From Eledone cirrhosa (Eukaryota), in the NCBI GenBank assembly GCA_964016885.1, contig OZ024741.1:92442001-92506000 (forward strand): a stretch of 64,000 nt of DNA, read 5' to 3'. The position numbers and the translations under genes are program-made. Positions 10,586 through 64,000 of this stretch are shown piece by piece; the stretch's first letter is position 1, and every line of letters begins with the position of its first letter. The notes under the pieces were generated by a model. It worked only from the letters and a program-made list of their open reading frames with translations, was not told the origin of the DNA and did not search any database.

Positions 10586-10692
10586 ATGTAATTCAACAAT
10601 TTGATGGCAATGTTAGAAACCAAACAACAGCCGCTATATTTGTTACATACCCACCAACATTTACCAACACATATGTAGGCTTGTTCAATCAG
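10586..10692 (+). CDS. Aquaglyceroporin loop C exon
   Basis: tacag|AT...CAG|gtcagt. 107 bp, phase 1/0. Translates (D)VIQQFDGNVRNQTTAAIFVTYPPTFTNTYVGLFNQ, containing the glyceroporin TAxIFxTYP signature. In frame with both flanking exons. Confidence 0.92.
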
Positions 10693-17952: not shown

Positions 17953-18039
17953 GAGGTTATATTTAATTTGTTGGGATTCAACAAGCTTAAAAATTGTTTA
18001 TAACTGATATAAATCACTCAACAGAGAGTGGAGTAAATG

Positions 18040-18446
<407 letters not shown>

Positions 18447-24989: not shown

Positions 24990-25359
24990 AATTAAAAAGA
25001 ACAGAAAGATGCAGTAAAAGAGTTTTATTCGGTTCTTACGTACGTTTCAATAGACATCAATTTGCCTAGATCTCGCTACATCTATAATATTATATATTTA
25101 GTAGAGCATTCGATATCCAATGCGCAATCGATCCCATATCATCAGAGGTTATGTTTACCGCACCAGAATATTCAGGTTTTTATAGCAATTCATGTGAAGT
25201 TGAAGTAGAGAAGAAGGAGGATGTGACAAAGACGAGAGAGATAGGGGGGTTTTTCATAGTTGTTGAGGTAAAACAGAGGGGAGGATAAAATATGATAACT
25301 GTAAATCTACTCTTGTACATATTAACAATGACGCACACAAAATAGTTAAGAACCTGGGT

Positions 25360-27201
25360 ATGGATGACAGGACAGAACCAATAATTCCAGCGACCCCATC
25401 CTTTAATTTAAAGGACCACAAAGTCAATTTCCATGCAAACCCCCAGATTAGACTAATATGCCCATCGAAATCGGATATAGATAGAGTAAGTAAATATATA
25501 TTAGATAGAGTAATCCCCCAGCTAAAACGGATAACTGGCATAAAACTCTGGGCAAATACTGAGGAGGCGGTATGTTGGTTTAATAATATCAAGGATAGGG
25601 ATGAATCAAGATTTATCCAATTCGACATAAATGACTACTACTCCTCTATATCACCCGATACCCTACATAAAACCCTACTGTTTGCCGGAGAGAATTCTGA
25701 CCTAACCGACGCGGAAATAGGCATCATCCTTGAGGCCAGAAAAACCATAATTAAGTTCGATGATAGCTATTGGGTGCGCAAAGATAGACCATCTTTCTTT
25801 GATATCACGATGGGCTCAAACGATTCTGCCGAAGTTACAGACGTAGTGGGCATCTTCATCGCTCAAGCACTAGAGAAAAAATTCCGCAATCTACAAGGTG
25901 GTATCTACCGCGACGATGCGCTCCTTTTAGCTAAACACCTAAGCAACCAGAAAATAGAAAGATTACGTAAGCAAATTAGCGGATTTTTAAACAGTCTAGG
26001 TTTTAGCATTACTTTTGAATACAACCTGACTGAAACAAATTTCTTTGATGTAACATTTAATTTAGAGACGGGGTAAATCCGCCCATTCCATAAATCTAAT
26101 GAAAATATTATGTATGTTGACCATAAATCTAATCATCCACCCTCGGTTATACGGTCTATCCCTCGGGCCATCTCCCTTAGAATATCACGCCTGTCATCTA
26201 CCCCCCAGATCTTTAGTGAGCACGCTTACTACTATAACAACGCACTTAAGGCGGCTGGGTACCAAGACAAAATAGAGTACATAGATCCAGCACACCAATA
26301 TAGAAATAAGGGCTCACGACGCACTAGCATAAATAATAATATAGGTACGATACACAACATACACTTTCCGCATAGGCATAGTCGAATTAGAAGCACACAA
26401 CCCAACCAAGCTAGAAAGCGGAATCGTAACTACCTTTGGTACAACCCAATATACAATGCCTCAACATCTCCTAAAATTTCCTCACTTTTCTTCAATTTAA
26501 TCAAAACACATTTTCCTCCTACACATCGATACGCTAAGATACTAAATCTAAGGTCTATTAAGCTTTCATATTCTACAGCACCCAATCTCGATCTAATTAT
26601 TAAAAAACTTAACTCCAAACGATTAGTCAGCACATCCACACGAAGCACCCCAAACTACATTAACACTTCCTCAAACTCTCAACCACTGAATGTAAACCCT
26701 CCTGCAGCAGACACACATATAAACCTAACGCAATCTGTACAAAATAATAATACTACAGGAGCTGATAAGTGCAACTGCAACCTACCTGATCGTTGCCCTC
26801 TGAATAACAAATGCATGGAATCCAATTTGGTGTATCAATGCACCGTTGAATCGGATAACCGAAGATGGCACTATATCGGCTGTACTTCTACCACTTTTAA
26901 ATCTCGTTGGTACCAACACCGTAGTTCGATAAAGAACATCAAATACCGTTCCGTAACTACCTTAGCCAATACAATTTGGCAGTTGCGCGAAAGTAACCTG
27001 CAATACACTTTGAAATGGACAAAACTTTCTAGTGCTTCCGCATATCGTGCAGGCCAGCCTTACTGCCGATTATGCAATATGGAGCTATTTTACATACTAA
27101 AATCCAAATATACTCTTCTCAACAACAGAACGGAAAGGACTCTATACTGCAATCACAGACTCAAGGCTACCTTCTCTAAATACAAACCTGGCTTGATTTG
27201 A
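25360..27201 (+). pseudogene. PLE reverse transcriptase + GIY-YIG endonuclease ORF with one in-frame stop (TAA 26074-26076)
   Basis: FIQFDINDYYSSI, TMGSNDSAEV, IYRDDAL, SNHPP, CNC..CPL..C, LVY..HYIG, CRLC. The two ORFs are in the same frame. Confidence 0.9.
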
Positions 27202-28484: not shown

Positions 28485-28550
28485 TATTTTATCTGAAGAA
28501 GGCATGCCATATTTTTAATATGGTATCCCCGAAATATGTATAATGAAATA
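28485..28550 (+). ncRNA. Minimal type I hammerhead in a PLE 3' remnant (about 27910-28590)
   Basis: tattttat-CTGAAGA(28493)-atgccatat/atatggtat-GAAA(28531)-tatgt-ATA-atgaaata. The downstream tail resembles 18295-18344. Confidence 0.65.
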
Positions 28551-29168: not shown

Positions 29169-30800
<1,632 letters not shown>

Positions 30801-32149
30801 GAGAGAGAGAGAGAGAGAGAGAGAGTGTGTGTGTGTGCTCCAATGTGTTGTGTCAGTGTGTATTCTGATTGAGCTTTATAGTTTCAGCAATTTGTATCTT
30901 AGATACAATTTGGTCATCATAGCCATAACACTCGGTTATTTTCATACTTAGAATATGTTGTCATTTATAAAGTGCACGGCCGTTAGGTGGGAGTCGATTC
31001 CCGGTCTGTTGTGCCCTTAAACAAGACACTTCATTTCACATCACTCCAGTTCTCTCGGCTTAAAAGAAATGAAAACAAGAAGGCCGCTCCGTTGATGAAA
31101 CAACTGAAACAATCGTCAACGCGCATGCCCTAGGGGTAAATGGTTGGAGAGTAGGATGGTAATGTAATATGTTGCTTCCCTGACAGGTCCTACAAGTAAT
31201 GATACAAAGTTGTTTGTGTTAATCTCATAGAAATTTCTAGTCAGTTGACAGTTATCTTTCATCGCTGTATTACAACAATTGTATTAACTCAATCCCATTA
31301 CTGCACTAGGGCTTGATGAACACAACCACAAGGATATGGTCCGAACGTGGAAGAGCCGAACTGCCACTGTCATTGCCTCCCTCTCTCTCGCCCTCCCCAT
31401 CTCTCTGTATGGTGAGCAAATGGGGTCCCACGTGCTGTCCTCCCCACATTCCCGGCGGACAGAATGGAGAAGGCGTTTTCCCGGAGGATGGTAAAGGAGA
31501 TACGCTGGAAGAGCCATTCCAACTCGCGAGGCTCACACCTGCGGCTGGCCAGTAGAGCGGTAACCCTAAGGCCAAGGACACCAGAAGTCTCCACTGCCAA
31601 GGGCACGACCAGGCGTGTTTTACGTTGCTTTTCATTATATAACTGGGTTCCGTGTCATTAGAACACGCAAGAAGCCTCCCGTGAGATATAACCTCATAGG
31701 AAGTCAGCTAAAGCTACATGGTGTAAGCTGTAAATTTCATTTTTTTTTTCTATTGTTTTGTTTTTTCTGTTTTATTTTTCCATGGCTGGAACTTACTGAA
31801 ACGTGTCATTAAGTACAAGAAAGCAGTTGTACAAATTTCTCTGTGGGGAGAGAATTGTTATATATTCTACATAGTCGTGTAAATGGCTGGAAGTAAAGGA
31901 CGGATATTCTTTCATGTGCATGCATGGTTTTTGGCAAGCTCTGTTGATGCGTCAGTTGCTGTCAAGCAGCCCGCATGTGAGATGTACTATTTACGCGTTG
32001 TATTTTCATTTCGCCATATACTGACAAGTAGTATCCTGAGTACCGGAATACCACGAGAACAGGAGATGAAAGACGTGTGAATACGACACGGAAACCAAAG
32101 CTCAGTCATCACAGTGGAAATATCCAACGTCGCCAAAACGTAGGTTAGG

Positions 32150-34196: not shown

Positions 34197-37100
34197 ATAC
34201 AATGGCGACCGTTGTGGTCAGTGTCCGATAATCGGACGTGTGTAATTACGGCTTACATGAAGGCAACATACCATATATTGGAAAACGTTGAGCTACATTA
34301 CGCGGTAAAATTACATACAATAATTCTACAAGTGTTTGAACTGTAAGTGTGTTGTAAAACACCTATTTATATGAACGATACATACACTTATGATATATGA
34401 ACGATACATACACTTTAACATATAAATGCAACGTTGTTATATTACATTTATAAAGAAATATGCAAGTAACTTTTTCGATTCAGAAACAAAAACATAAGTG
34501 TTTGAACTGTGAATATGTTGTGAATAAGTTGTAGAACACCTATTTATATGAATGATACATAAACTTTAACATATAAATACAGCGTTGTTATATTATATTA
34601 CATTCATAAAGGAATATACTAAGTAACGATTCTTTTTGTTCTCGATTCACGTTTCAAGAACAACGTTTAAAATACAGTTGTAGAATTAAAAACTAACTGA
34701 AAAGAAATATTACCCAAGCTGTGAATAACATTAAATTTGATTCTGACAGAACTTTGTCGAAACTTTTAAAGAAGATCATCGACTATTTTGAAAAATAAAT
34801 ACCAAATATTAGTGAATAGACGAACTCATCATGGCAAAACGTACAAGTCTCCTTCGACCACTTCGCAACTACAACCGTTGTATACAGTGGAGCTACGAGC
34901 TTAACAAAGAATTATATGAAGCATACAAACAATCTGAACCCCAAAAGTTCGGTTTTATGCAAAGGCTAAAAACTTTATGGAACTCCAAACACCCAGAATT
35001 AGACTTTTCTCCAAAGCATTTAAATGAACAGGCAAAACGTATCATTGATACATCTAACGGAATTGAGTGATACTACAAATACAGCCCTTGTAGACAACCA
35101 CCCCACCTCCACTGACAGACAAAGAGAATGGCAAGCTAAATCTAACAGTGAACAGCTCACCAACAATTTTGCTGAAATCCATCCCACTTCCACTGAAGAA
35201 CAGCGAGAATGGTCAGCTAACTCTAGTAGTAATTGTCACCACATCAACAACGAGGCTGAAATTCATGACTCTACTGTACAAACAGAACACCAAAAACTTG
35301 TGGACATCTTACAAGTGATATAGAACGATATGTTTCAAGAGATACACAGCCTTAATGTGAGTGACAGACCATACAACACCAGAATCAGTAAAGAACCCAC
35401 TAAATTGGAATTGGAAGCGGTGAACGAAATAGCTGGCAATTATATGAAGGCTATACGATCTAAAGGTGTAGAAACGACATTTGAAACGCTTAATATTTTA
35501 TTATATGTTTCAGCTGTCACATTGCTATCATATAACACACATCTAAAACCAAGCAATCAAGATACAAACAAAAATCCTGAACCAGCGTGGATGCGAAATT
35601 TAAAAAGCAAAATTTTGTCCCTGAGACGAAGTATCTCAGACATCGCAGTCGTTATGAAATGCAACATAGAGAGCTACTTCACACGACACCAGGAAGACCT
35701 ACAAAAAAAAGTTAGAGAGACGATTTGGAGATACATAATTTAAAACTATGAACTCCAAATTACACCAGTTGAAACAACAACTCACAGCTACAACAGAAAG
35801 ACTAAAATATAAGTCAACAGCACATAAACGACAAGTGCTAAATAGATTGTTTGCCAGAGATCCTAAATCAGTTTATCGCAGCTTCGGTGGCAAAAGCTCA
35901 ATCCCTGTAAATGACACCCCTTCAAAAGAACAGGTTGAGAGCTACTGGAGATCTGTATGGGAAACGGATGACGGATTCAACAGACAAACTAATTGGCTAA
36001 AAGAACTGGAACAGGACTACTGCCAACATATCCAGACAAAACTATATGACATAGATGGGTCAATACTGGAAACAGCTCTACAGAAAATGTCGAATAGGAA
36101 ATCACCAGGCCCAGACCTCATTACAGGATACTGGTTGAAGAATTTCACTTTCTATCGGCAAGATCTCATACAGCTGTTTACTGAAACCATTAAAGGCACA
36201 CAAGAACTGCCCAGATGGTTATCAACTGCCACTACTCTCCTCATTCCCAAAAATAGCCAAACCACCCTTGCTAAAAATTACCGCCCAATAGCCTGCAAAA
36301 ACATCATGTATAAATTATATACTGGGTGCCTTAACCTGTTCTTACAGGATCACTGTGCTACCAACAACATCATAACACATGAGCAAGCTGGTGGAAAGAG
36401 GGAGGTGTAGGGATGCATAGATCACCTACTAACTAATAAAATGATTCAAGAAAAAACAACAAAGAATCGCAGAAACATGACTGTGGTGTGGCTGGACTAT
36501 CAAAAAGCATTTGATAGTGTACCTCATGGGTGGATTGTTAAGGCTTTACAGTTAGCCAAAGTCCCACAACCACTGGTAGCTGCTGTTGAACGTCTGACCA
36601 AGAACTGGTACACCAATTTGATCCTTAGAGGTGAGAAGGAGCAAGTTAAGACTGATAGGATACATTACTAGAATGGCATCTTTCAGGGTGATAGCTTGTC
36701 AGTGCTACTCTTCGTTCTCTCACTAAATCCACTATATTACCTACTCAGGAAACAAAGTGGACAAAGAAGTGGGTCCAGAAGTATCTCCCATCTTTCTTTG
36801 TTGATGACCTGAAGTTGTATGGGCCAAATATCAATGACATCAAGAAACAATTGGACCTCATTACATAATTTTCAACAGACATCAAAATGAAATTTGGTGA
36901 GTCCAAGTGTGCATATTTGGCAGTAAAACGTGGAAGAGCTGTGTCCTCCTCTAGAAATCTAGAGATGAACGGCCTGACAATACAACCTCTACAGTCAGGT
37001 GACAACTACAGATATCTTGTACAGGATGAGAATGTCAGATATGATGGACCCATAAATAAGAAGATAACCAGAACTGAATACCTCAGAAGAGTAAAGAAAA

Positions 37101-38412
37101 TACGGTTATCAGAACTGTCAGCGTACAACAAATACATTACCCACAATACTTATGCTGTGCCAATTCTAACGTCAACATTTGGCCAGCTGAACTGGTCATT
37201 GCAAAAACTAAGTGAGATGGATGTTAGAACTCGCGAACTTCTCAGTGTTACTGGGAACTGTAACATCAATGGTGATGTCGATAGGCTATACTTCTCATGC
37301 AAGGAAGTTGGCCGGGGTCTAAAATCCATATTAACATCATATGAGACCCGGATAGTAACACTGAAGCAACACCTTCAACAGAGGAAAAAGGTTGGCAACC
37401 ATCTTGCCCAGGTTTATGAGCATGAAAAAAATATATCATTAGAATAGCCACTGATCTGAAGGAGAGATATGGAATAAAGCCTGATATAAATCTCTCACCC
37501 AGAGAAATCGGAAGATCCTATTCAATGTTCAAACAAGATGAAAAAATTGACCAATTTACAGAAAAAGTTGTGCATGGATACTTGAGACGTAAAACACAGA
37601 CCATAGAGGGGATAAACCACTCAAAAAGCCTGGCATGAGGTTCCGACAAGTTTATGACATCACACCTTGAGGGATATCTCTATGCAATACAGGAACAAGA
37701 ACTCCCTACCAAATATCTGCTGCACAAAAGGGGAGGGCCATCACCTGACAATAAATGTAGGCTATGTAAAACAAAGATCGAGGATGTAAGCCACATTGTT
37801 GCCAGCTGCGAAAGAATGTCATCTCGCTACTACCTCCCCATGAGACACGGTGGGATAGCTAGAACCATCTGGAACGCACTTCGGAAAACAAAATTAACAA
37901 CAAACGAGGAAGAATATATTGAGACAGATGGCACTAAGGAATACTGGTGGAACCTGAAAATAAAAACTGCCACCATATTAAAGCACAACCGGCCTGATAT
38001 TGTTGTTTGGGACCACACATTGGAAACGTGTTCTGTTGTGGAGATCAGCTGCCCACTTGATGTAAACGTTGTCAGAAAAATACAGGAGGAGGAGGAGGAC
38101 ATCTACGGACCATTGATGAGGAGTTTGCAAATCCAGTATCCAAGATACACCTTTAGCTTCATACTCATCATTATTGGAGCTACGGGTTATATACCAACCC
38201 GTTTGGACCAAGGTATGACTGAACTTGGATTTGCGGGAAAAGAGCGCAGCTCCCTAATTCATAGTCTATAAATGGCTGCGATAGCTGGCACCTTCAAAAT
38301 TTGCAAAACATTCTTGCGATTCAAAGGATGACAATTTCTTTTCTTTTACAACCTTGCCACCAGGAAGGTGGCCGGTCAAAAAAATATACTCAAAATTAAG
38401 AGAAAGAGATAA
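34197..38412 (+). mobile_element. R4/Dong-clade non-LTR retrotransposon, family A, near full length but decayed, inserted in (CATA)n
   Basis: N-terminal WSYELNKELY..GFMQRLKTLW. RT motifs KSPGPD, NYRPIAC, WLDYQKAFDSVPH, GIFQGDSLS and FFVDDLKLY. CCHC CRLC..H..C and RLE HNRPDIVVWD..VEISCP. (CATA)n tracts at 34109-34196 and 38413-38486. Confidence 0.92.
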
Positions 38413-38486
38413 CATACATACATACATACATACATACATACATACATACATACATACATACATACATACATACATACATACATACA

Positions 38487-40007
38487 GGGAATACAACACC
38501 CGATTAAGAAACATGGTCATCGGAACTCTCTGCGCAAAACAAAACAGTGGCTCACAATGTGTTTGCTGTGCCTGTCCTAACACCAACGTTTGGAGAATAC
38601 TCAATTGGACGATAGACGAAATCCGAGCAGTTGATGTTGGAACTCGAAAAATACTGAACAACACCGGAAACTTCCACATCGACAGTGACATAGACCGCCT
38701 TTACTTGAAACGTAAGCAGGGAGGCAGAGGCCTAACATCAGTCCAGACAACATTTGAATGTCGCATCATATCTCTCCGACAACATCTACGAACCTCGAAG
38801 CGTAGGAGCCCGTTTCTCGAGCAAGTCTATCTGCATGAAACAGATAAGATCATGAGAGCTGGGAAGGAACTCCTCGAGAGATATTCCCTGTGTGATAATC
38901 AAAAACTCACACCCAGGGATGTCGCTCAGCAGTATCGCAGTGAATCCATGGATGAAAAACTGCATGCTTATCAGCAAAAAATCATGCATGGATATGTTGC
39001 CAGGAAGCTCCAGAGTGAGAGCAATATAGATAAGGAAAGTAGTCTATCTTGGACCAACAACCGCTATATTGGCTCCCACTTTGAAGGATACGCTTTTGCA
39101 ATCCAGGAACAGGAGATTAACACGAAATACCTGATTCACAAAAGAGATAGGGATGCAGGCAAAACACCTAGATGTGATAACAAGTGCAAACTCTGCAGAA
39201 CTAACATCGAGGATATCACCCATGTCATCAGCAGCTGTCCAAAGATGTCATCGCGGTACTATCTACCTATGAGGCATGATGTAGTGGCCAAAACACTGTA
39301 CAATGCAGTTCGTAAAAAAGATAGCCCCGATAATAAAGACATTAAAAGCTACAGCAATGTGGAAGACATCCATGTACATAATATGAAAGAGTACTGGTGG
39401 AATGTTCCAGTAAAAACTCTAATGAAATGCAAGCATAACAGACCAGATATTATGATATGGGACAGGGAGAAGAAAGCATGCACAGTAGTAGAAATTAGCT
39501 GCCCAGCAGATGCCAATATAATATCAAAGATTAGTGAAAAGGAGAATATTTATGCAGAACTGATGAGAAATCTGCAGATACTCCACCCTGATTACATCTT
39601 CAGATTTATGCTTGTGATTATTGGCGCACTGGGATATGTTAGTAACTGCCTCAATACAAATCTTGAGAAGCTGGGCTTCACAGGAACAGAAAGAACACAA
39701 CTAGTTAGGAAATTACAAGTACAATCCATTAATGGAACAGTAAAAATATGTAAAACATTACAAAGATTTTGCATCTAATAACTGCATATACACATGTACA
39801 GATGCAAAGCATATATACATGCACGCATACAACTCAAAACATCCACATCCACACATACAATAACATCCATATCTACACATGCATGCATGCATACATACAT
39901 ATCTACCTAGTTGATGTGTAAATTCCAATGAGAGAGTCTTGTGTCTATGTTAGAAACCGACTCTCTCTCTATTGGTAAAACTTTGTGAAATTATAAAACC
40001 AGAAGAG
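38487..40007 (+). mobile_element. R4/Dong-clade element, family B, 5'-truncated copy 1
   Basis: Open C-terminal ORF (DIDRLYLKRKQGGRGL, CKLC..H..C, HNRPDIMIWD..VEISCP). The 3' end AAAACCAGAAGAG abuts (CATA)n. Confidence 0.92.
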
Positions 40008-40061
40008 CATACATACATACATACATACATACATACATACATACATACATACATACATACA

Positions 40062-40378
40062 TACAAGCACAATCCATTAATGGAACAGTAAAAATATGTA
40101 AAACATTCAAAAAATGTTGCATCTAATAACTGCATATACACATGTACAGATACTAAGCATATACACATGCACACATACAACTCAAAAGATCCACATCCAC
40201 ACATACAATAACATCCATATCTACACATGCATGCATGCAGACATTCATGCATGCAGACATGCATACATATCTACCTAGTTGATGTTTTGTAAATTCCAAT
40301 GAGAGAGTATTGTGTCTATGTTAGAAATCGACTCTCTCTCTAATGGCAAAAATTTGTGAAATTATAAAACCAGAAGAA
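40062..40378 (+). mobile_element. R4/Dong-clade element, family B, severely 5'-truncated copy 2 (ORF end + 3' UTR)
   Basis: Near-identical to 39713-40007 and 45651-46011. (CATA)n on both sides. Confidence 0.9.
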
Positions 40379-40429
40379 CATACATACATACATACATACA
40401 TACATACATACATACATACATACATACAT

Positions 40430-41053
40430 GATGGCTGCCCCCTCGTTATCGAGTATGGCCATTGCACGATATACCATTATTAATAATTATCAATTAATTC
40501 TATCGGGCAATGCCTGTGCGTGAAGATATTTTTTAAAGTGAGGAAAGACTGTGCACTGAGCCAATCCCACTCTCTGAGCGAAAGTAGCTATAACCAGAAA
40601 AGAAGAAAAGAACAACATCATAATAACTACTGATCCGCAGGTTTTATATCGGAGTTATCCCAGTTTCCTGAGTTGCCTTCTCCTAGAAGAATGCCCTACC
40701 AAAGACTAGGAGTCCTTCACTCCCAGTGGTTTAACCGCGCGATCGGGTGTCCAGCCCGACTATTTCTATGTCCCCGCGCATATACATACACATGCACCCA
40801 TGTATATACGCATATATATATACATACACATGTACATGTGTATATACATATTTACACACTTTTGGCTGGCCGTTGACTCTTATCAGTTCTTCCGCCCTTT
40901 ATCAGGTTTTGTTTTTTGTCCTGCAGGGTGTCCCAAATCACCCTCCTCACCAAGTGAACTTGGTGGGGGTGCCTGTTTAGTCGCCGACGACCCGACCATG
41001 CGACAGGTTGTACTGGGTTACATGTTACCAGTACCACTCAAGAGTGACCCGAC
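40430..41053 (-). mobile_element. Short non-autonomous retroelement, probably RTE-derived, copy A in (CATA)n
   Basis: Shares both termini with copies B and C. The minus strand has a CTAGGAGAAGG(C/A)AACTC motif resembling RTE 5' UTRs. No ORF. Confidence 0.7.
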
Positions 41054-41130
41054 ATAACATACATACATACATACATACATACATACATACATACATACAT
41101 ACATACATACATACATACATACATACAAAC

Positions 41131-41705
41131 ATGGTGGCTGCCAACTCGTTTTCGAGTACGGCCACTACTTTATATCCATGTAGGAGAACCCCTACCGATG
41201 CGCTAAACAAGTGTGACTTTTTAGTCCAGCCAGCGACTTGAAAACTCTGGTACAAACACTACACTTGTGACAGTTATTGACACATAGTGCTGGGCCCATG
41301 GTACCATGTGACGACAAGTGCAGAGAGATCTCCAGATATAAAGCAATGCCTGTGCCGTGAAGCTTTTATAGTGAGTAAAGGCACTGCACAAAGCCAGTCC
41401 CACTCTCTTAACCAAGATGATATTTACCAAAAAAGAAGAACAAGTCAACATCATTGGATACCATCAGGGTTGCAGGTGTTATATCAGAGTTTTCCTTCTC
41501 CTAGAATTCTGCCTTGACAAAGGCTAAGGGGTCATCTCTCCCGGTGAATTTGGATGGCCATTGACTCTTAAGAGCTCCTTTGCCTTTTGACAGGTTTTGT
41601 TTTTAGTCCTGCAGGATGTCCAAAGTCACGCTCCTCACCAAGAAACCTTGGTGGGGTTGCCAGTTTAGTCGCCAACGACCCGACCATGAGACAGGTTGTA
41701 CTGGG
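41131..41705 (-). mobile_element. Short non-autonomous retroelement, copy B in (CATA)n
   Basis: Same ends as copy A, lacking about 35 terminal nt. Minus strand contains CTAGGAGAAGGAAAACTCTGATATAA. Confidence 0.7.
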
Positions 41706-41730
41706 ATACATACATACATACATACATACA

Positions 41731-41764
<34 letters not shown>

Positions 41765-41851
41765 CATACATACATACATACATACATACATACATACATA
41801 CATACATACATACATACATACATACATACATACATACATACATACATTCAT

Positions 41852-42382
41852 GATGGCTGCAAATTTTGCTAAGAATATTGCAATCGCTTGTCAAATTATA
41901 GAGTTTGGTGCACTTTTAGGCTATGGCCAGTCACACGAACCTGTAACAGATCCTGAACAAGCAATGCCTGTGCTCTGAAGGTTTTTTTAAGTGGTGAAAG
42001 GCCTTGCACTCGACCAATCCCCTTCTCTGAGTATCGAAAACACTACCCGAAAAGGAGAACTGGTCAATATCATCAGATGCTTCCGAAGCCGCAGGTTTTT
42101 TTCTTTCTTTTTTCAGAGTGTTTCCCTCTCCTAGAAAGGTGTTGTGACAACTGGGGGCCATTCACTCCCAGGTGAAAAAAAAATACTATTTGGATGGCCG
42201 TTGATTCTGCTGAGTTCCTCCGCCCTTTGCCGAGTCTTGAATTTCATTCCTAAGGGTGCCCAAATATCACCCTCCTCACCAAACAAGCTTGGTCGGGATG
42301 CCGGTTTAGTCGCCGACGACCCGACCATAAGACAGGTTGTACTGGGTTACATGTTACCAGTAGCACTAGAGAGCGACCTGAC
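41852..42382 (-). mobile_element. Short non-autonomous retroelement, copy C in (CATA)n
   Basis: ATGGCTGC start and GTTTAGTCGCCGACGACCCGACCAT..GACCTGAC end, as in copy A. Confidence 0.7.
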
Positions 42383-42396
42383 ATACATACATACAT

Positions 42397-45300
42397 GTCA
42401 GTCAACGCGATCAGTCGCACATATTGGCGTGGGAGACTTCATTAAATTTAAGATGAATACTACCTCCGACAGTAATGCCACAACTACCAGTCATGTTGAA
42501 TAACTGGATATTCTTCTAACTATATCCACCGAAGACACTTTTTATTCGAATTCGTAGGGATATCCGACTAAATACATAATTCATTTTACAAGGATTTGCT
42601 ACAAACAGCATGGCCGAACACAATATCAAGAAAAACAGTTTATCGAACACAAGGAGCGTAAACAATTTACCGAAGAAAACCAGTGAGAAAATCAATGAGA
42701 AAGGTAAACAAAATTTATTCAATTGTAGCTACAAAAGAAACCGAAATTATAAATCGCATTTCTCTTGGAGTTGCCAACTTAATGATGATTTATTTAATTG
42801 TTATAAAATGTCGAAAAAAATCTCTCCGTTGGCTATATGAACAGAATGAAACTACACTGGGACGAAATACATCCAGAGCTAAATCATTTCACGGCGAAAC
42901 AATGACGCCAATAAGTGACGTTTGTTGAACGTAAAAATAAGATAAATATTAGTAATTGTAAGTCCCCCAGAACAAAGATGGAATCAACAACATGTGTTAC
43001 AGGTCGCCATGCTACTAGACTTCCGAGCAGCCAGGTCGAACAGTGCCTTGAAACAACTATGCCTGTAAGAAATTTGACACCACGTGTACCATCCGAATCT
43101 ACCTCGGCTGTTGTGGAAACACTATCAATAATAATTGAATAATAAAATAGAAACGATGTTTGGTAACAATAGAACCAGAACTCTTCAATTGAAAGCTGTC
43201 AGCAAGAAACGTCGATACCAGAAGGTAGATGAAAGAAAAGTGCTTAATAAAAGATTCAGACGAAACCAAACATCAGTCTATAGAGATATGAAGGGCAAAA
43301 TAATAAGTGTCACTGAGGCTCCATCCCAGAAAGACATAGATTCCTTTTGGAGAAAAATATGGGGTGAAAAGAAGAATTTCAACCAAGATGTAGTGTGGCT
43401 AAAAGAAAATAACACTACAACAAAAACATGAAATAAGTGAGGATACCCTTGATAAGAAAACACCAGGAAGAGACATAATTGTCGGCTACTGGTACAAAAA
43501 ACTGATATTCTATCGGGTGTATCTTATCGACCTCTACCAACAAGTTCTCAAGGGAGATACACTTATACCAGAATGGTTGAAATTAACACAAACAATATTG
43601 GTCCCCATGAACAAAGACACCCACTTGGCAAAAAACTACCGACCCATTGCATGCCAGAACCTGATGTATAAGATGTATACAGCTTGTCTGAAGCTATTTC
43701 TTCAAGATCACTATGAAAATAATAACATCATCACAGATGAACAAACAGCTGGAAAGAAAGGTATTTGGGGTGTGTTGAACAACTCCTAATCAACAAAACT
43801 TAGAAGGATATGGCTACAGTCTGGCTGGACTACAGGAAAGCTTTTGATTCTGTTCCCCACTCTTGGATGATAGAGGCCTTCCGGCTTGCTAAAGTCCCAG
43901 ACATTATTATCAGAGCCTTAGGGAAGCTGTCTTCTTCTTGGGCTACTATCCTAAAGTTAAAATCAGAGAAGGAGGACTCAATTTTTACTAATAAAATAGA
44001 ATATTACAGGGGTATATTTCAAGGACACGGTCTCTCTGTGATATTATTTATCCTGTCATTAAACCCCTTGTACTTTCTGCTCAAGAAATGTGAAGGATAC
44101 ATCATTGGCTCATAGGAGAACAGAAATACGAACTTAACCCATAATTTCTTTGTGGATGATCTGAAACTCTATGCCAAGAACATAGATGGGATGAAGAAAA
44201 ATCTTGACCTGGCTACAACATTCAAAGATATAGGAATGTAGTTTGGCCAAGATAAATGTTCATATATGACTGTAAAGCGGGGAAAAACAACAACCCAATC
44301 TAGCAACATTTTCATCAATTGCCTAACTGCTTCACCGATATCTGATGAGGACTGCTACAGATATCTGGGGATAGATGAGAACATATCCTATAATGATATT
44401 TGTAATAAGGAATTCGTAACCAGGGAATATTACACCCGATTAAGAAACATATGGTCATCGGAACTCTCTGCGCACAATAAAACAGTGGCTTACAATATCT
44501 TTGCTGTGCCTGTCCTAACACCAACGTTTGGAATACTCAATTGGACGATAGACGAAATCCAAGCAATTGATGTTGGAACTCGAAAAATACTAAACAACAC
44601 TGGAAACTTCCACATCAACAGTGACATAGACCGCCTCTACTTGAAACGTAAGCAGGGAGGCAGAGGCCTAACATCAGTCCAAACAGCATTTGAATGTCGC
44701 ATCATATCCCTCCGACAACATTTACGAACCTCGAAGCGTAGGAGCCCGTCTATTGAGCAAGTCTATCTACATGAGACAGATAAGATCATGAGAGTTGGCA
44801 AGGAACTCATTGAACGATTTTCCCTGCGTGATAATCAAAAACTCACACCCAGGGAAGTTGCCCAGCAGTATCGCAGTGAATCTATGGATAAAAAAAGGCA
44901 TGCTTATCAGCAAAAAATCATGCATGGATATGTTACTAGGAAACTCCAGAGTGATTGTAATAGAGATAAACAAAGTAGTCTATCTTGAATCAACAACCGC
45001 TATATTTTCTCCCGCTTTGAAGGATACGTTTTTGCAATCCAAGAACAGGAAATCAACACGAAATACCTGATTCACAAAAGAGACAGTGATGCAGCGAAAA
45101 TACCTAGATGTGACAACAAGTGCAGACTCTACAGAATTAACATCGAAGATGTCACCCATGTCATAAGCAGATGTCCAAAGATGTCATCGCGGTACTATCT
45201 ACCTATGAGGCATGATGTAGTGGCCAAAACACTGTACACTGCAATCCGTAGAAAGGATATCCCCGATAATAAAAACATTAAAAGCTACAGCAATGTGGAA

Positions 45301-45899
45301 GACATACATATACATAATATGAAAGAGTACTGGTGGAATATTCCAGTCAAAACCCCCAATAAAACGCAAACATAGCAGACCAGATATAATGATATGGGAC
45401 AGGGAAAAGAAGGCATGCACAGTAGTGGAAGTTAGCTGCCCAGCAGATGCCAATATAATATTATAGATTAGCGAAAAGGAGAATATCTATGCAGAACTGA
45501 TGAGAAATCTGCAGATATTCCACCCTGATTACACCTTCAGATGTATGCCTGTGATTATTGGGGCACTGGGATATGTTAGTAACTGTCTCAATACACATCT
45601 TGAGAGGCTAGGCTTCACAGGAACAGAAAGAACACAACTAGTTAGGAAATTACAAGAACAATCCATTAATGGAACTGTAAAAATATGTAAAACATTCCAA
45701 ACATTCTGCATCTAATAACTGCATATACACTTGTACAGATACAAAGCATATGCACACGTACAACTCAAAACATCCAAATCCACACATACAATAACATCCA
45801 TACCTGCACACAGATGCATGCATGCAGATATGCATACATATCTACCTAGTTGATGTTGTTTAAATTCCAATGAGAGAGTCTTGTATCTATATTAGAAAG

Positions 45900-49128: not shown

Positions 49129-49219
49129 GCCCACATAGCTCAGTCGGTAGAGCATCAGTTTTTTACGGATTATTCACTGAAGGTATCTGAGGTTGCGGGT
49201 TCAAGTCCCTCTGCGGGCG
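49129..49219 (+). pseudogene. tRNA-Lys(UUU) intron-containing copy, probably a pseudogene
   Basis: Like 54964-55055 but with an acceptor-stem mismatch (GCCCAC), anticodon-arm changes (CAGTT for CAGAC) and a 1-nt deletion. Confidence 0.8.
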
Positions 49220-50380: not shown

Positions 50381-51176
50381 ATGGCTTCTCACTCTGTTCT
50401 ACCAACGTACACGGGCGACGTAAGGCTATGGTTCGCCCAACTCGAAGCATTTTTCGAAGCGAACAGAGTTGAAGAGGCACAACAACGTCCTCTGGTCCTT
50501 AGTGCAATTCCGCCGGCACTTCTCCCAGCGATTAAGGACCTGGTGTTAGAGACACCCACAGACGCGACGTACAAGTCTCTGAAGACTGAAATACTCAGCC
50601 GGACTGCCCAGTCTGCATAAAAAAGGTTTAGGGCTCTGGTCCATCTGGAGCATATAGGGGATGGCACCCCATCGAACCTCCTAAGGCGAATGAAGGACCC
50701 AATGGAGGGGTCGGTAGCGGAAACTGCCATGCTGAAGCAGTCGTTCTTCTCGCGCCTACCGACCAACGTACAGGCAATTTTGGCCCCCCATTAGGGATAC
50801 TTGCACAGTGGATCAGCTTGCCGCCTCTGTGGACAAAGTTTTCGAAGTGACGGGTGCTGTAGGCAGCGAACCCCTTGCCGCTGTTCACCACCCAGCTCGG
50901 GCCACACCTGGCGATGACATCTACGCGGCAGCGCCAATAGACAGCTCAACCATTATGGCGATGCAAAAGTCCATTCAGGAACTCACCCTAGAGCTCCATA
51001 AGATGAAGGCCTTGTGTGGTGCCCGTTCACCCCTCCGAAGTCGCGGGAGATCGCAAAGTTTTAGACGTCGTTCAAAGTCACCAGCTTCATCTTTATGCTG
51101 GTACCACGAGCGATTTGCCGAGAGCGCGAACCACTGCATGCAACCCTGCTCGTTTCATAAGGCGGGAAACGCCTAA
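50381..51176 (+). pseudogene. Gypsy gag (one stop and one frameshift)
   Basis: LPTY..VRLWFAQLEAFF..YKSLKTEIL, then RSRGRSQS..CWYHERFAESANHCMQPC. A GGGAAAC slippery-like site lies before the stop. Confidence 0.85.
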
Positions 51177-54100
51177 GAGGTCCGCTGATTGGGACAGTTG
51201 ACCTCAACATAAAGTCACCAAACCACCATTTCTTCATTAAGGACCTTATGTCGGGAAGAGGTTTCCTCGTGGATACAGGAGCCTTCTGTAGTATTTTACC
51301 GGTCCATTGTCTGAAAGATACCCCCGTAGAGTCATCCATTACTCTTCAGGCAGTTAATCACTCGTCTATAAAGACGTACGGGCAAATCTCGCTTCCTCTC
51401 AAATTCCTAAATCTTCGTAGGGATTTTAAGTGGATTTTTACGTTTGCCGATTTGCCATACCCTATGTTAGGAGCGGATTTCCTCCACAACTTCTCTTTGA
51501 CTGTGGACGTCGGTGGCCAACGCCTGGTGGATAACATCACCGGTTTTTCAATTCGTGCCCGGAAAGCCAATGCTCCAATAGTCAGCCCCATATTCTTCAT
51601 CGCTGCCGCTGGATACGCCTACCATTCGTTGCTAGGTTCTTTCCCGGAGCTCACCGATAGAAATTTTCGAGTCACTGATCCAACACACTCGACTGAACAT
51701 TTCGTTTCCACCACCGGTGCTCCAGTGTTTTCGCGTCCACGCCGGCGGACAAATTAAAGGCAGCACGGTCCGAGTTCGACCATATGCTGCAGTTGGGCAT
51801 TATTCGCCCATCTACGAGTCATTGGGCTTCACATGGTGCCCAAGACTTCCGGCGACTGGAGACCCACTGGGGATTATAGAAGGTAAAATGCCATGACCGT
51901 CTCGGATAGGTATCCCATTCCCCATCTCCAGGATTTTGCATCTTCACTGCAGGGGTGTAAGATTATTTCAAAGCTAGATTTAGTGCGAGCCTACCATCAA
52001 ATTCCGGTCAGGAATGAGGATATTCCGAAAACGGCGATTACAACTCCTTTCGGATCCTTCGAATTTTTTACTATGCCTTTCGGACTCAGGAATGCCGCTA
52101 GCACTTTTCAGCGGTTCATAGACGAAGTCACTCGTGGTCTGGACTTCGTTTATGATTACATAGACGATATTCTCGTCGCTAGTTCCTCTCCAGAAGAGCA
52201 TATGCGCCACATGCATCTCTTATTTCGGCGACTTCAGGATTACCGCGTTCGTGTGAATCCAGCAAAGTGTGTTTTCAGTTTCACTTCACTAAATTTTTTA
52301 GGCCACCTCATCGACGCCGAAGGTATTAGGCCGCTGCCTCAGTGAGTTCAAGCCATACAGGATTTACCTCCGCCTACTACACTTCACCAGTTGCGTCACT
52401 TCTTAGTCCTAATCAATTTCTATAGGCGTTTCGTTCCTCATTGTGCTAATTTGCTATCTTCCCTTACTGACATTTTGAAAAATCGTCGTAAGAAGAATGA
52501 GGATATTTCCTTGACACAAGGACAGCTTCAAGACTTCCAGACTGCTAAGGACAGCTTCAAGACTTCCAGACTGCCAAGATAGCACTCGCTAGTTCATCTT
52601 TGCTAGCCCACCCGGTACCAGAGGCCAAGCTTTCGCTTTGTGTTGATGCATCTGATACCGCTGTGGGAGCAGTTTTACAGCAGTTCTACGCTGGAAACCA
52701 ACAACCTTTGACATTTTTCTCGAGTAAGCTGAAACCAGCAGAAACGCGTTACAGCACGTTTGGGCGGGAATTATTAGCCATATATCTGTGCGTGAAACAT
52801 TTCTCTCATATTCTTGAGGGGAGAAATTTTACAGTTTTAACCGACCCCAAACCTCTGACCTTCGCTTTGAGGGCTAAAGCCGACAGATATTCGCCCAGAG
52901 AAACAAGGCACCTGGACTACATTTCACAATTTACAAACGATATCCAGCACATTGCTAGCTCGCATAACATAGCTGCAGACGCATTGTCACTTTTGCCAAT
53001 CAGCTCCATCTCGTCATCCCACGAGATCGACTTAGGTCGTTTAGCTGCAGACCAACCTGCACTCCAATCGTTGGACACTCTTTCTGCCGAATTTGCGACT
53101 TGCATCTTCAAATATATGCCCTTGTGGACCACCGACAGGCAGATTCTATGTGATGTATCTACGGATTCACCACGACCACTTGTTCCTGAGACTCACTGTC
53201 GAATTGTGTTCCTTGCTTTGCACAACATTTCTCACCCAGGATCTGCTGCCTCAGTAAAGCTCATAACAGCCAGATTCTTCTGGCCAAATATGAGGCGCGA
53301 TATTGCTGCTTGGTGCCGTTCCTTCATCGCTTGCCAGAAATCGAAAATCCATAAACACATCCGGACTCCGCTTGGTACTTTCAGTACTCCTGATGCTCGG
53401 TTTCAGCATATACACATTGACCTCGTTGGACCTTGGCCATTCAGCAGTGGATATTCGTACCTCTTGATCTGTGTCGATCGTTTTTCGCGATGGCCTGAAG
53501 CCATCCCCTTACAAGATATGACAGCCGAGACTGTAGCACGTGCCCTGGTATCAGGGTGGATTACCCGCTTTGGGGTACCAACTACAGTCACCACAGACCG
53601 TGGTAGACAATTCGAGTCCCATCTTTTCTCTGAGCTCACAAAGATCATTGGAGCTCAACGGATTCGGACCACAGCCTATCATCCTGCTTCAAACGGAATG
53701 GTGGAACGATTCCACCGCCAATTAAAGGCCGCTCTTCGCGTCTATCCAGACTCTCAACGTTGGAGCGAGTACCTTCCTATTGTGTTGTTAGGAATTCGGT
53801 CATCAATAAAGGAGGACCGTGGGTTCTCCCCGGCCGAATTACTTTATGGTGCTCCTCTAGCGTTGCCTGGGCAAATGCTTGCCCCTGTTGATCTTGCTTT
53901 CCAAGATCCTCTTTCCTACGTATCCCGTCTGCGTTCTTATTTTCATGACCTGCCGCCGATAGATACGAGGAAACAAACTGTAAAACCTGCAGTCCCGAGG
54001 GATATTGCCTCGTGGACCCATGTGTTCGTAAGAAACGATGCTGTGATACCACCCCTTACACAACCGTACTCTGGACCCTACCGTGTGTTAGCACGTACTG

Positions 54101-54330
54101 ACAAACATTTCACCGTAGACATTAAGGGGTCCAGAGAGACAATTTCGGTGGATAGACTAAAAAGGGCACACAATGACGCTCATACACCCGAGCCTCAACT
54201 ACCTCATTCTTTCTCTCTTGTACATACACCTGCTCCTTCTTCCCCACCTTCACCTACATACAAGACCACGACCCGTTCCGGGCGAAGAGTCCACTGGCCC
54301 AAAAAACTCTGCCAAACTGTTTTCATGTGA
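51170..54330 (+). pseudogene. Gypsy pol (protease, RT, RNase H, integrase), disrupted
   Basis: [78 protein letters not shown]. Confidence 0.95.
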
Positions 54331-54963: not shown

Positions 54964-55055
54964 GCCCGCATAGCTCAGTCGGTAGAGCATCAGACTTTTA
55001 CGGATTATTCAGTGAAGGTATCTGAGGGTCGCGGGTTCAAGTCCCTCTGCGGGCG
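54964..55055 (+). tRNA. tRNA-Lys(UUU) with a 19-nt intron (55001-55019)
   Basis: GCCCGCA/TGCGGGC acceptor stem, A box TAGCTCAGTCGG, anticodon TTT at 54997-54999, intron at position 37/38, B box GGTTCAAGTCC and TTTT terminator about 10 nt downstream. One T-stem mismatch. Confidence 0.85.
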
Positions 55056-55697
55056 TACGATTGCTTTTATAAAGATTTGCAAACATTTTTTTAAATATTA
55101 ATCTTCAGACATTGTTCAATTCATATTAACGATAATACATGACTGTCTTAATCGTTTTACGACTAGATTTTTTCTTCTTCTAATGATAGAAATGTATTTG
55201 AAATGAAAAATAACGCATTTGACGAACTGTTGACAATTTTCAATACAATTATGTTAAGTAAGTTTGTTTTGAAACAGAGAGCGAGTATGAAAATAGAAAT
55301 AGAAGCTTTCGTCGTATTTTTGACTAAAGAGATTTTAGCCTGATAGTGGGGTTTAGAACCGTTCGTCAATGCTCATCTTTTTCCATTTCTCAGAGGGTTC
55401 TAAACCCCACTATCAGGCTAAAATCTCTTTAGTCAAAAATACGACGAAAGCTTCTATTTCTATTTTCATACTCGCTCTCTGTTTCAAAACAAACTTACTT
55501 AACATAATTGTATTGAAAATTGTCAACAGTTCGTCAAATGCGTTATTTTTCATTTCAAATACATTTATATCATTAGAAGAAAAAATCTAGTCGTAAAACG
55601 ATTAAGACAGTCATGCATTATCGTTAATATGAATTGAACAATGTCTGAAGATTAATATTTTTAAAAATGTTTGCGAATCTTTATAAAAGCAATCGTA

Positions 55698-55789
55698 CGC
55701 CCGCAGAGGGACTTGAACCCGCGACCCTCAGATACCTTCACTGAATAATCCGTAAAAGTCTGATGCTCTACCGACTGAGCTATGCGGGC
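55698..55789 (-). tRNA. tRNA-Lys(UUU) with a 19-nt intron, inverted identical copy
   Basis: Reverse complement of 54964-55055. Confidence 0.85.
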
Positions 55790-59262: not shown

Positions 59263-59266
<4 letters not shown>

Positions 59267-60159
59267 AAAGATGGTTAAATGAGTTCCATGTATTTTATTA
59301 TGCGCATTTCAAAAACAAATATCATCATGCAATAACATTTGGGTTTTCATCAGATAAAATAGGACATGATATGAAGGTTAAAAACACTTGTGGATAGTGC
59401 AGTTTTAAATCAACATATGAAAAGTAGTTTTAGATTGATGTGTGATATTGGGGAAAAAAAATTTTTTTTGGTGGGGGGGGGGTGAAAAAGAGGAGATGAG
59501 TAAAAAGTGGAGGGGGAGGAGTATAATGAGGAAAGATGAGATAGAAGGAGAGATGGCTGATAGAGAGAGAGAGAGCTTTTATAACTGAGAAAAATATATT
59601 GTTTTACATAGAGAGGTTGAAAAACCGTTGGAAGATAATGTATAAATTAAAAGAATTTGAAAATTAACGAAGAGAAAAATAATGTAAAGTTAAGGTTTGT
59701 ATATTGAAGGGTTTAATAATATGTGCGATGAAAAGAAATTGTTAATATATATTAAGAATAATATTTAAGGGTTTAATATGTGCGATGGAAAGAAAATGTT
59801 GATATGTATTATTAAAAAAACAGAAGTAATGTAAGTAAGGATATATTGTGAGATGAGCATGAATAAGTTATATGAAAGTGAGAAAAAAATAATGAATAGA
59901 GGATGAATAATCTAACGTCAAAAAAAAAATGTTTATGTTTACGAAGGATTTTTTCAAGGTGAAATAAAGTAAGAATATAGTGTATTGTGTAATAATTGTT
60001 TGTTAGGCACAGTGAGAAAAGGTACAGATTAGGGGTTAGAAATTAAAAGAAAAAGAAAAGAAAAGGAAAAGAAGAAAGGGAAGTGATGAATAGGAATGAT
60101 ATAGAATATGATAAATAACTTTGAAATAAGGTAGAAAGATGGGTATATTTTTAAAGAAG

Positions 60160-60202
<43 letters not shown>

Positions 60203-60656
60203 CTTTGAGAAAAGGATTCTGAATTGATAAAGTTTAGGATATTAGCTGCATACTTTATGGAAAGTTCTGTGGAATTTATGCAAGCAGATAGAAAACAAGT
60301 CAGTGCGTCTATTTATTATAGAATCTAAATTAGATATAATGGTAAATTTTTCATTCTCCTATCTCATCCTTCCTCATTATACTCCACCCCCTCCACTTTT
60401 TACTCTCATCTCCTCCTATTTTTCATCCTTTCAAACCTCCTCCCCACCTCAAAAAAATGTTTCCCCAATATCACACATCAATCTGAAACTACTTTTCATA
60501 TGTTGATTTAAAACTGCACTATCCACAAGTGTTTTTAACCTTCTTATCATATCCTCCTATTTTATCTGATGAAAACCCAAATGTTATTGCATGATGATAT
60601 TTGTTTTTGAAATGCGCATAATAAAATACATGGAACTCATTTAACCATCTTTTGAT
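59263..60656 (-). mobile_element. 3' end of a Nematis-type PLE with inverted pseudo-LTRs, each carrying a hammerhead
   Basis: 59263-59550 is the reverse complement of 60355-60656. The minus-strand peptide IINRRTDLFSICLHKF at about 60240-60345 matches the ORF end at about 27110-27200. Hammerhead: tattttat-CTGATGA(60566)..GAAA(60609)-tgcgc-ATA-ataaaata. Confidence 0.75.
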
Positions 60657-60750
60657 CTTATATATTATGTATACTCCAGTCCTACAAAACTGTAGAATGC
60701 TTCTTATCCGATATCTGCATTGCTTTATTGTACTACAATAAAACTCACCT

Positions 60751-62265
<1,515 letters not shown>

Positions 62266-62326
62266 AGAAAGTGAGGTTTTTTTTACAAAATCGAAAATCA
62301 ACCGAGGTGTCCTACACGAGTGGAAG

Positions 62327-62626
62327 TATAAAGAAAAAGGGATGAAATCGAAAATGCAACTGAAGTCTTATTTTTTTTTAAATATATATATTTATTTGGT
62401 TCCTTTACCGGTTTCGCAGTTCTTCTGCTTTTCAAAAGGTGAGTTGAGATGGAGGGTCTGTGTTTTTCTCACATCTGATGTGAGAAAAACCACAGACCCT
62501 CCATCTCAACTCACCTTTTGAAACGCAGAAGAACTGCGAAACCGGTAAAGGAACCAAATAAATATATATATTTTTAAAAAAATAAGACTTCAGTTGCATT
62601 TTCGATTTCATCCCTTTTTCTTTATA
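62327..62626. repeat. 300-bp foldback of a PLE-like terminus with a degenerate hammerhead in each arm
   Basis: Palindrome centred on T62476. Each arm reads cctt-TTGAAA(C/A)-gcag-aagaa-ctgc-GAAA-ccgg-TA-aagg. Confidence 0.75.
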
Positions 62627-62702
62627 TAAATATATATATATATATATAAAATAATATATATATATATATATAAAAATATATATATATATATATATATAAA
62701 AA

Positions 62703-62737
<35 letters not shown>

Positions 62738-62740
62738 AAT

Positions 62741-62777
<37 letters not shown>

Positions 62778-62954
62778 AATATATATATGTATATATATAT
62801 ATATATAAATATATATATATAAATATATATATTCACATATATATCGCTATTTCAGAGCATTTATTCCAATTTCTAATTTCTGCCGGACCGGCAACCGCTC
62901 TTTCAAACCAGTTCCTGTACACAGCTAAGTATTCTATAAGTCTCTAGCTGTGTC

Positions 62955-63043
62955 ATTCTCGATAAAAGCACTGGATATGTAGTCCTGAAGATTTCTAACA
63001 AGAATGAAACGCGTAGATTACTTCCCTTGCTTTTATCGAGAAT
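62955..63043 (+). ncRNA. Type I hammerhead ribozyme, copy 1 (predicted cleavage after 63015)
   Basis: Stem I GTAGTC/GATTAC extended by ATTCTCGATAAAAGCA/TGCTTTTATCGAGAAT. Core CTGAAGA at 62985-62991, stem II TTCT-AACA-AGAA, GAAA at 63006-63009, palindromic ACGCGT stem III and a GUA triplet. Confidence 0.88.
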
Positions 63044-63264
63044 CTAATTGTAATACGTGACGTATTCTATTCTATAGCGATTAGGTCTTCAAAATGTTTA
63101 TTATAAACATACAGAATATTTTCGAATATTCTATGTCTATATTCACATATATATCGCTATTTCAGAGCATTTATTCCAATTTCTAATTTCTGCCGGACCG
63201 GCAACCGCTCTTTCAAACCAGTTCCTGTACACAGCTAAGTATTCTATAAGTCTCTAGCTGTGTC

Positions 63265-63353
63265 ATTCTCGATAAAAGCACTGGATATGTAGTCCTGAAG
63301 ATTTCTAACAAGAATGAAACGCGTAGATTACTTCCCTTGCTTTTATCGAGAAT
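63265..63353 (+). ncRNA. Type I hammerhead ribozyme, copy 2 (predicted cleavage after 63325)
   Basis: Identical to copy 1, offset by 310 bp. Confidence 0.88.
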
Positions 63354-63573
63354 CTAATTGTAATACGTGACGTATTCTATTCTATAGCGATTAGGTCTTC
63401 AAAATGTTTATTATAAACATACAGAATATTTTCGAATATTCTATGTCTATATTCACATATATATCGCTATTTCAGAGCATTTATTCCAATTTCTAATTTC
63501 TGCGGACCGGCAACCGCTCTTTCAAACCAGTTCCTGTACACAGCTAAGTATTCTATAAGTCTCTAGCTGTGTC

Positions 63574-63661
63574 ATTCTCGATAAAGTACTGGATATGTAG
63601 TCCTGAAGATTTCTAACAAGAATGAAACGCGTAGATTACTTCCCTTGCTTTTATCGAGAAT
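63574..63661 (+). ncRNA. Type I hammerhead ribozyme, copy 3 (predicted cleavage after 63633)
   Basis: Core intact (CTGAAGA at 63603-63609). Small changes in the distal stem I (GATAAAGTA). Confidence 0.85.
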
Positions 63662-63762
63662 CTAATTGTAATACGTGACGTATTCTATTCTATAGTGATT
63701 AGGTCTTCAAAATGTTTATTATAAACATACAGAATATTTCGAATATTCTATGTCTATATTCA

Positions 63763-63849
<87 letters not shown>

Positions 63850-63941
63850 TATATATAAATATATATGTATATATATAAATATATATATATATATAAATAT
63901 AAATATATATATAAATATATATATGAAATATATATATAAAT

Positions 63942-64000
<59 letters not shown>

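Follow-up and report, generated by a model that had tools for sequence, protein, structure and literature searches.

The three tandem units at 62830-63762 of the window (the whole stretch of DNA analysed, 64,000 nucleotides from the octopod Eledone cirrhosa) belong to a family that is, by its anatomy, a real young non-LTR retrozyme, and the mechanistic footprint it leaves is new and can be tested. It combines tandem hammerhead units, a lack of coding capacity, dispersed multicopy occurrence and a highly self-paired monomer. The sequence-only reading of the array as a retrozyme is supported in this sense, with cleavage, expression and circles as its predicted part. Probably, monomers released by a double hammerhead are closed to circles and copied for many rounds into (TA)n by a Penelope-like RT/endonuclease.

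The array in the window

TRF detects a period-310 array of 3.1 copies with 99% matches, bounded by (TA)n, in agreement with the earlier description of three near-identical head-to-tail units of about 310 nt. Units 1 and 2 are identical, while unit 3 has five differences, three of which are 1-nt deletions. The features are as follows.

62623-62829, strand not applicable: left (TA)n target flank
62830-63762, plus strand: one-armed retrozyme insertion, 3 units and 6 nt
62830-63139, 63140-63449 and 63450-63756, plus strand: the three units, of 310, 310 and 307 nt
62955-63043, plus strand: hammerhead 1, predicted cut after 63015
Parts of hammerhead 1: stem I 62979-62984/63016-63021; core CUGAAGA 62985-62991; stem II 62992-63005; GAAA; palindromic stem III 63009-63014; a distal helix and a GGA/UCC helix outside stem I
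63016-63325, plus strand: predicted 310-nt monomer from double cleavage, its two ends brought close by stem I
63094-63132, plus strand: a pair of hairpins immediately upstream of the B end, which sister families preserve through compensatory substitutions
63146-63180, plus strand: 35-nt 'tail' between the fixed ends B and A, found in each unit
63265-63353, plus strand: hammerhead 2, same sequence as hammerhead 1, predicted cut after 63325
63326-63633, plus strand: predicted 308-nt monomer
63574-63661, plus strand: hammerhead 3, predicted cut after 63633; its core is intact and its distal helix has two changes
63763-64000, strand not applicable: right (TA)n target flank, running on beyond the window

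End B is unit position 6 (to 15 by TA microhomology) and end A is unit position 41; the tail between them contains a 13-nt motif common to the sister families described below. The array in the window ends at the family's B end, and its 5' junction lies within TA-like microhomology. The hairpins at 63094-63132 are a candidate protein-binding element. The ORF listing has no ORF of at least 120 aa inside the 310-nt units and no RT/GIY-YIG ORF, so the array is not an autonomous Penelope-like element.

Elsewhere in the window, aquaporin gene exons occur at 5640-5792 and at about 10587-10692, the first closest to Octopus aquaporin-8; one aquaporin exon has 85% identity with Octopus sinensis and 78% with Argonauta, which marks the host as an octopod. 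At 54964-55789, two tRNA-like matches of 59 bits each, inverted relative to one another, surround a hairpin at 55293-55463, and another tRNA-like match lies at 49129-49219. By their motifs, the regions 50736-54330 and 35324-45375 are taken to hold an LTR retrotransposon of Gypsy-like type and several non-LTR retrotransposon ORFs, all of them broken.

Hammerhead motifs and RNA folding

The type I hammerhead motif CUGANGA...GAAA...UH with stems I to III is present in all three units. The cores and the cut positions (after 63015, 63325 and 63633, for monomers of 310 and 308 nt) were found where the sequence-only reading had put them. Stem I is GUAGUC/GAUUAC, 6 bp including one G-U, and is followed by a 3-bp GGA/UCC helix and then by a 16-bp helix; stem I and the 16-bp helix had been recognised before, and the short helix between them had been missed. 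Stem II (4 bp) shows a U-U mismatch at the base. Stem III comprises one A-U pair and a palindromic CGCG loop, and GUA precedes the predicted cut.

A search with Rfam, which had been proposed as a check, gave no hammerhead match in the window (E<=1, among 150 of 153 matches listed), nor in 62830-63770 alone even at E<=10. The hammerhead call therefore rests on motif, folding and covariation. The Rfam miss is probably due to the 1-bp stem III and the U-U mismatch.

The self-complementary hairpins and the long-range pair that had been noted in the monomer all appear in the predicted folds. The circular monomer folds with a z-score of -4.4 against 150 shuffles, as expected of a highly self-paired RNA, and the linear monomer with one of -5.2 (0/100 shuffles as good). 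Left unconstrained, a two-unit stretch folds as a double hammerhead, at -109.9 kcal/mol compared with -94.6 kcal/mol for two single hammerheads, and these modelled energies support the dimer-type hammerhead that had been suggested. A lone monomer is predicted to lack a stable stem III and would therefore stay uncut. Against an easy expectation of cleavage, only one of nine Xenopus retrozyme dimers was cleaved according to the portion of the preprint 10.64898/2026.07.22.740005 used here.

Other hammerheads are found nearby. At 62268-62626 another family is represented by a short palindromic insertion with two arms (62327-62467 and 62486-62626, the left one about 59 nt longer). Its U3-A8 hammerhead has the palindrome CCGG in stem III; the minus arm carries it intact, and the plus arm with A9 changed. 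The two-armed insertion at 59263-60752 carries identical hammerheads at 59353 (minus) and 60566 (plus) and ends in (TA)n; its end family also flanks loci L059 and L067. Further motifs at 18034-18351, 28493-28542 and 7348-7415, one of them an inverted pair, are likely Penelope-derived ends. Other hammerhead families with related stem II/III designs, such as a CUAG palindrome or the U-U mismatch, occur at L137:8880-9520, L177, L182, L127, L164 and L211, and there are many distinct hammerhead repeats in the genome.

Size and age of the family

A 24-mer from the unit has 16,659 exact matches in the 3.0-Gb genome (control 0), the intact core has 16,278, and a variant in which CUGAUGA is combined with a paired base of stem II has 3,775. 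Exact junctions between the A end and (TA)n number 1,049, implying at least that many insertions. The dispersed copies that the sequence-only reading had called for are thus present, as about 16,600 units, and these, with the insertion count, rule out the local tandem duplication of a dead Penelope-like end that it had named as the alternative. Since the units are nearly identical, the burst that produced them is very recent.

An assembly artefact or local duplication might be suspected from an array that sits within long (TA)n and from the 1-nt deletions of unit 3. The thousands of copies, the locus-specific haplotypes and the abundance of the unit in an independent-looking sequencing run (X1, possibly the assembly's own sample) refute this for the family, and the idea retains practically no probability. 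Three runs labelled as other organisms (X2, X3 and X6) carry the unit as one low-depth contig. They are read as trace carry-over because the host SINE is also present, in ratios of the same order as in X1, and horizontal spread was rejected.

For closer study, 137 other loci were assembled by three selection routes. Thirty-nine were scored out of 169 candidates and chosen for a full unit identical to the window's, which favours its haplotype; 18 are arrays behind the first 100 listed 24-mer matches; and 80 come from the first 100 A-end places listed, and were chosen for the A end.

Anatomy of the insertions

Most insertions consist of two oppositely oriented arrays in (TA)n. Setting aside 18 loci that are not clean two-arm insertions, 2 with gaps and 4 retrieved incomplete leaves 113 clean and complete ones. 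Their outer ends are A and B in 109; one other end occurs in 4, and AA or BB in none. The A arm ends at unit position ~41 and the opposite arm at B, ~6-15, 35 nt apart. In a 78-locus set (58 loci not picked by end type), A and B ends are paired in 58/60 cases, and 11/78 loci are one-armed. The sequence-only reading had described the insertion as a single array. This is correct for the window copy, which is an atypical one-armed insertion with only the B arm kept, but the family norm is two arms, only one of which stood in the window.

The arms join head to head at variable positions. Inner breakpoints fall within 5 nt of the predicted cut in 4/226 cases, where 8 would be expected, and no site is avoided. 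Arm lengths are roughly exponential, with means of 1,440 and 1,111 nt and a maximum of 8,459 nt, up to 27 units. About 93% of arms are longer than ~165 nt, the limit for a linear monomer from these start sites.

An inverted, 5'-truncated arm with a tail at one end only (109/113, 35 nt), at microsatellite or AT-rich targets, here (TA)n, is the Penelope-type arrangement, and the A/B end pattern is the Penelope 'tail' signature. As described in part of PMC11167929, the tail is the stretch bounded by two RT start sites, and cutting and extension involve both strands; the part of PMC8557442 consulted likewise gives Penelope-like elements an inverted copy and a 30-40-nt tail at one end.

Haplotypes and the nature of the template

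The template can be approached through sequence variants. The haplotype set, drawn from the 98 loci outside the window-identical set, comprises 80 arrays (787 units) that each have three or more full units. It contains 31 haplotypes; the differences are array-wide in 195 cases, singletons in 116 and intermediate in 17. Both arms of an insertion carry the same haplotype in 69/71 cases, compared with about 0.12 by chance. Private variants are fixed along long arrays, for example in 23/23 and 18/18 units. Among non-fixed variants, 133 are in one arm only, against 3 at the same rank in both arms.

One haplotype per insertion, long arms and the absence of a pile-up at the cut fit reverse transcription round a circular monomer. 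As a linear monomer could give only ~165 nt and a linear multimer cannot fix a new variant across a long array, a repeatedly read monomer is the simplest template. The sequence-only reading had treated the array as a source of monomers; it is better explained as a product of reverse transcription than as a source only.

Alternatively, the template could be an uncut, linear multimeric transcript of a homogeneous source array, mobilised by a Penelope-like enzyme, with circles as by-products. Such a transcript would account for the A/B ends, the lack of stops at the cut and the rank-matched variants of L221 and L240, and for the Anolis element in vitro, unprocessed RNA is the main substrate according to PMC11167929. 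However, its copying could only shorten arrays and should transmit the heterogeneity of the source, whereas private variants are fixed over 18-23 units, 31 haplotypes fill whole arrays and 133/136 non-fixed variants are one-armed. A monomer bottleneck and re-amplification would still be required somewhere, and we regard this explanation as unlikely.

It could also be that the template is a linear cleaved monomer whose ends are held by stem I, the RT jumping from end to end with no covalent circle. The predicted fold does pair the ends in this way, and one haplotype per insertion would follow. Such jumps would be expected to cause stops or indels at the junction, but breakpoints are not enriched there (4/226), and variants beside the junction are array-wide rather than unit-specific. 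This makes a bridged linear monomer quite improbable, more so than the multimeric transcript.

Circular monomers need not have been the only templates. The same variant order appears in both arms at L221 and L240, the haplotype switches in mid-arm at L150 and L240, and linked variants recur irregularly within arrays at L045, L139 and L225. From these it follows that multimeric templates, switching between templates or gene conversion must have a part as well, and the switches and the irregular recurrence indicate that DNA-level exchange also occurs. Multimeric circles were considered as a source of periodic variants and not accepted, the spacing being irregular. A joint that 'goes back 310' was dismissed as evidence for circles, as any tandem repeat yields such a joint.

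Sister families and compensatory change

The sister families, which are older and give 6,024 motif matches, align collinearly with the unit at ~67% identity; they have the tail motif in common with it, as well as the A/B style of ends. In the sisters and here, the A end lies 12 nt past the shared 13-nt motif despite differing sequence, a constant spacing that hints at a ruler set by a protein.

Across nine homologous units, both sides change in 23/46 pairs; 0/500 shuffles are as high, and slid controls give 2-6. All four stem II pairs covary, and C3-G8 is replaced in four units by U3-A8, a core variant also noted for the hammerheads in the text of PMC4209133 consulted. Because the structure was derived from the same nine related sequences, which favours it, the covariation counts as support and not as a probability.

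The maintenance of the fold by compensation across families this divergent also bears on whether dead Penelope ends were amplified at the DNA level, by unequal exchange, gene conversion or extrachromosomal DNA circles, with the hammerhead as a passenger. Exchange within arrays is visible (L045, L139 and L225), and the preprint 10.64898/2026.07.22.740005, in the part used, invokes local tandem amplification. Such a process gives no account of a fold so maintained, nor of more than 1,000 dispersed A/B insertions or of inverted arms with one haplotype, and it is very improbable as the origin of the family.

In the young family, the commonest array-wide variants are at N7, the stem II base, loop II and stem I, with pairing kept. 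None of the 38 distinct array-wide variants falls at the 11 core positions, where ~1.3 would be expected; this is not significant, and core conservation within the young family was set aside as evidence.

On the RNA strand, distinct array-wide variants include 10 A>G against 4 T>C (p 0.047; Fisher test against singletons 0.09), and counting by haplotype background gives 16 against 4 (p 0.002; Fisher 0.016). The A>G variants are mostly at paired adenosines, and the most recurrent one is in a UAG context. Octopods show heavy A-to-I editing, and editing prefers UAG. The A>G excess may reflect scars of such editing; this reading is only suggestive, because selection for pairing favours A>G (G-U being tolerated) and recombination mimics recurrence.

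Penelope-like elements and the search for a partner

Intact Penelope-like elements of this genome sit in (TA)n as inverted arms whose two fixed ends are separated by 108, ~146 or 40 nt; the exception is a pair at L126 with the short end on both arms. Mobilisation by Penelope-like enzymes had been put forward in the sequence-only reading. The end signature and the (TA)n target speak for it, while a sequence link to the Penelope families sampled did not appear. Four Penelope-like families with long ORFs (781, 784, 798 and 923 aa) gave no sequence match to the unit, and no homology between the unit and an autonomous pseudo-LTR was found among the families sampled (143/31,507 and 143/20,242 candidates scored).

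The 923-aa RT/GIY-YIG family has the closest tail length (40 nt, compared with 35 here), and the likeness of its motif is faint. Pfam detects an RT domain and a weak GIY-YIG domain in the 923-aa protein only. The labels 'Neptune-like' and 'Poseidon-like' presumably suit the Penelope families, going by their motifs. A search for the partner with a pattern built from the loose-end consensus gave 0 matches. Two other leads were rejected: a 2,451-nt spacing at L209 is a segmental duplication, and at L132 a short TA run stands between a sister unit and the Penelope ORF beside it, a neighbourhood that is no proof of partnership.

Broken copies of two Penelope-like families lie in the window at 25267-27201 (plus) and 29893-30875 (minus), and the genome contains many young intact relatives of both (ORFs of 781-798 aa and 923 aa). 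In the 3' region of the 923-aa family (L212, L213 and L217-L220), the pseudo-LTR has GAAA, a short hairpin and a palindromic TATA, and no CUGANGA core; it is possibly an atypical hammerhead. The family's 40-nt tail takes in the likely start codon. At L128, L125 and L134, autonomous elements have more than one unit per arm with a period of about 3.1 kb, as if their own RNA had been read round a circle or multimer.

Relation to known systems

The coral, mussel, axolotl and newt non-LTR retrozymes, as the parts of PMC7229834 and 10.64898/2026.07.22.740005 used here describe them, are likewise tandem non-coding 150-450-nt units of low GC, with one type I hammerhead per unit, thousands of copies and co-existing Penelope-like elements. 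As far as their available descriptions go, HHR_Amex1 has the same 1-bp stem III with a palindromic tetraloop, and HHR_Amex2 the same U-U mismatch at the stem II base. Unlike those retrozymes as described, the present family has two opposed arms, fixed A/B ends and one haplotype per insertion.

Penelope-like elements share the inverted 5'-truncated arm, one-end tail, two RT starts and (TA)n target, on the evidence of the text of PMC11167929 and PMC8557442 consulted. Here, in contrast, there is no ORF, and a structured 310-nt unit is repeated up to 27 times per arm. The minimal hammerheads of Penelope pseudo-LTRs are, in the portion of PMC4209133 used, also of the dimer type, through a palindromic helix III, as is predicted here; unlike them, the present hammerhead has a canonical 6-bp helix I, a 4-bp helix II, an internal loop and a long distal helix. 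MRC1-type Chlamys elements, as partly covered in PMC8557442, are also non-autonomous, of Penelope type and inserted as multiple head-to-tail copies. The Chlamys clade is there described as being without canonical hammerheads, unlike this family, and its elements resemble autonomous partners at their 3' ends, whereas no such partner was found here.

A literature search covering main texts found no octopus or cephalopod retrozyme. This agrees, within those main texts, with the earlier remark that no description of the family in this lineage was known to the reader.

A model of insertion and its implications

In the circular-monomer model, arrays would be transcribed, and the transcripts are predicted to cleave themselves into 310-nt monomers by means of the double hammerhead. 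A host ligase would close these, as happens in vitro for axolotl and mussel retrozymes. The enzyme would cut both strands, priming at site A for one end and, 35 nt away, at site B for the other. Both cDNAs would then cross the scissile junction repeatedly, stop at random and join head to head. For one Penelope system in vitro, the part of PMC11167929 considered here reports insertion without need of hammerhead cleavage and a start site alike on both strands; A and B ends are strictly paired in this family, in contrast to that lack of a strand difference.

Copying of retrozyme circles by Penelope-like elements has so far been proposed rather than demonstrated in the cited papers, and no insertion footprint is given in the sections of PMC7229834 and 10.64898/2026.07.22.740005 used; the build-up of tandem and inverted Penelope insertions is called undefined in a passage of PMC8557442. 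A 310-nt template and more than 1,000 very young insertions lead to exact predictions: each of the two DNA ends should have its own start site, each event should use a single template, and processivity should be about 1-1.5 kb.

More tentatively, and with the balance of probability against it, one RNA circle may be primed at two sites, 35 nt from each other, by two Penelope subunits on both ends of the break, each of which goes round it, so that each insertion is a clonal record of one RNA, A-to-I edits included, and the element evolves like a population of viroid-like RNAs that is archived in the genome. If this is true, octopod RNA editing would be written into heritable DNA. The family suggests a way of reading template identity, and possibly RNA editing, out of genomes.
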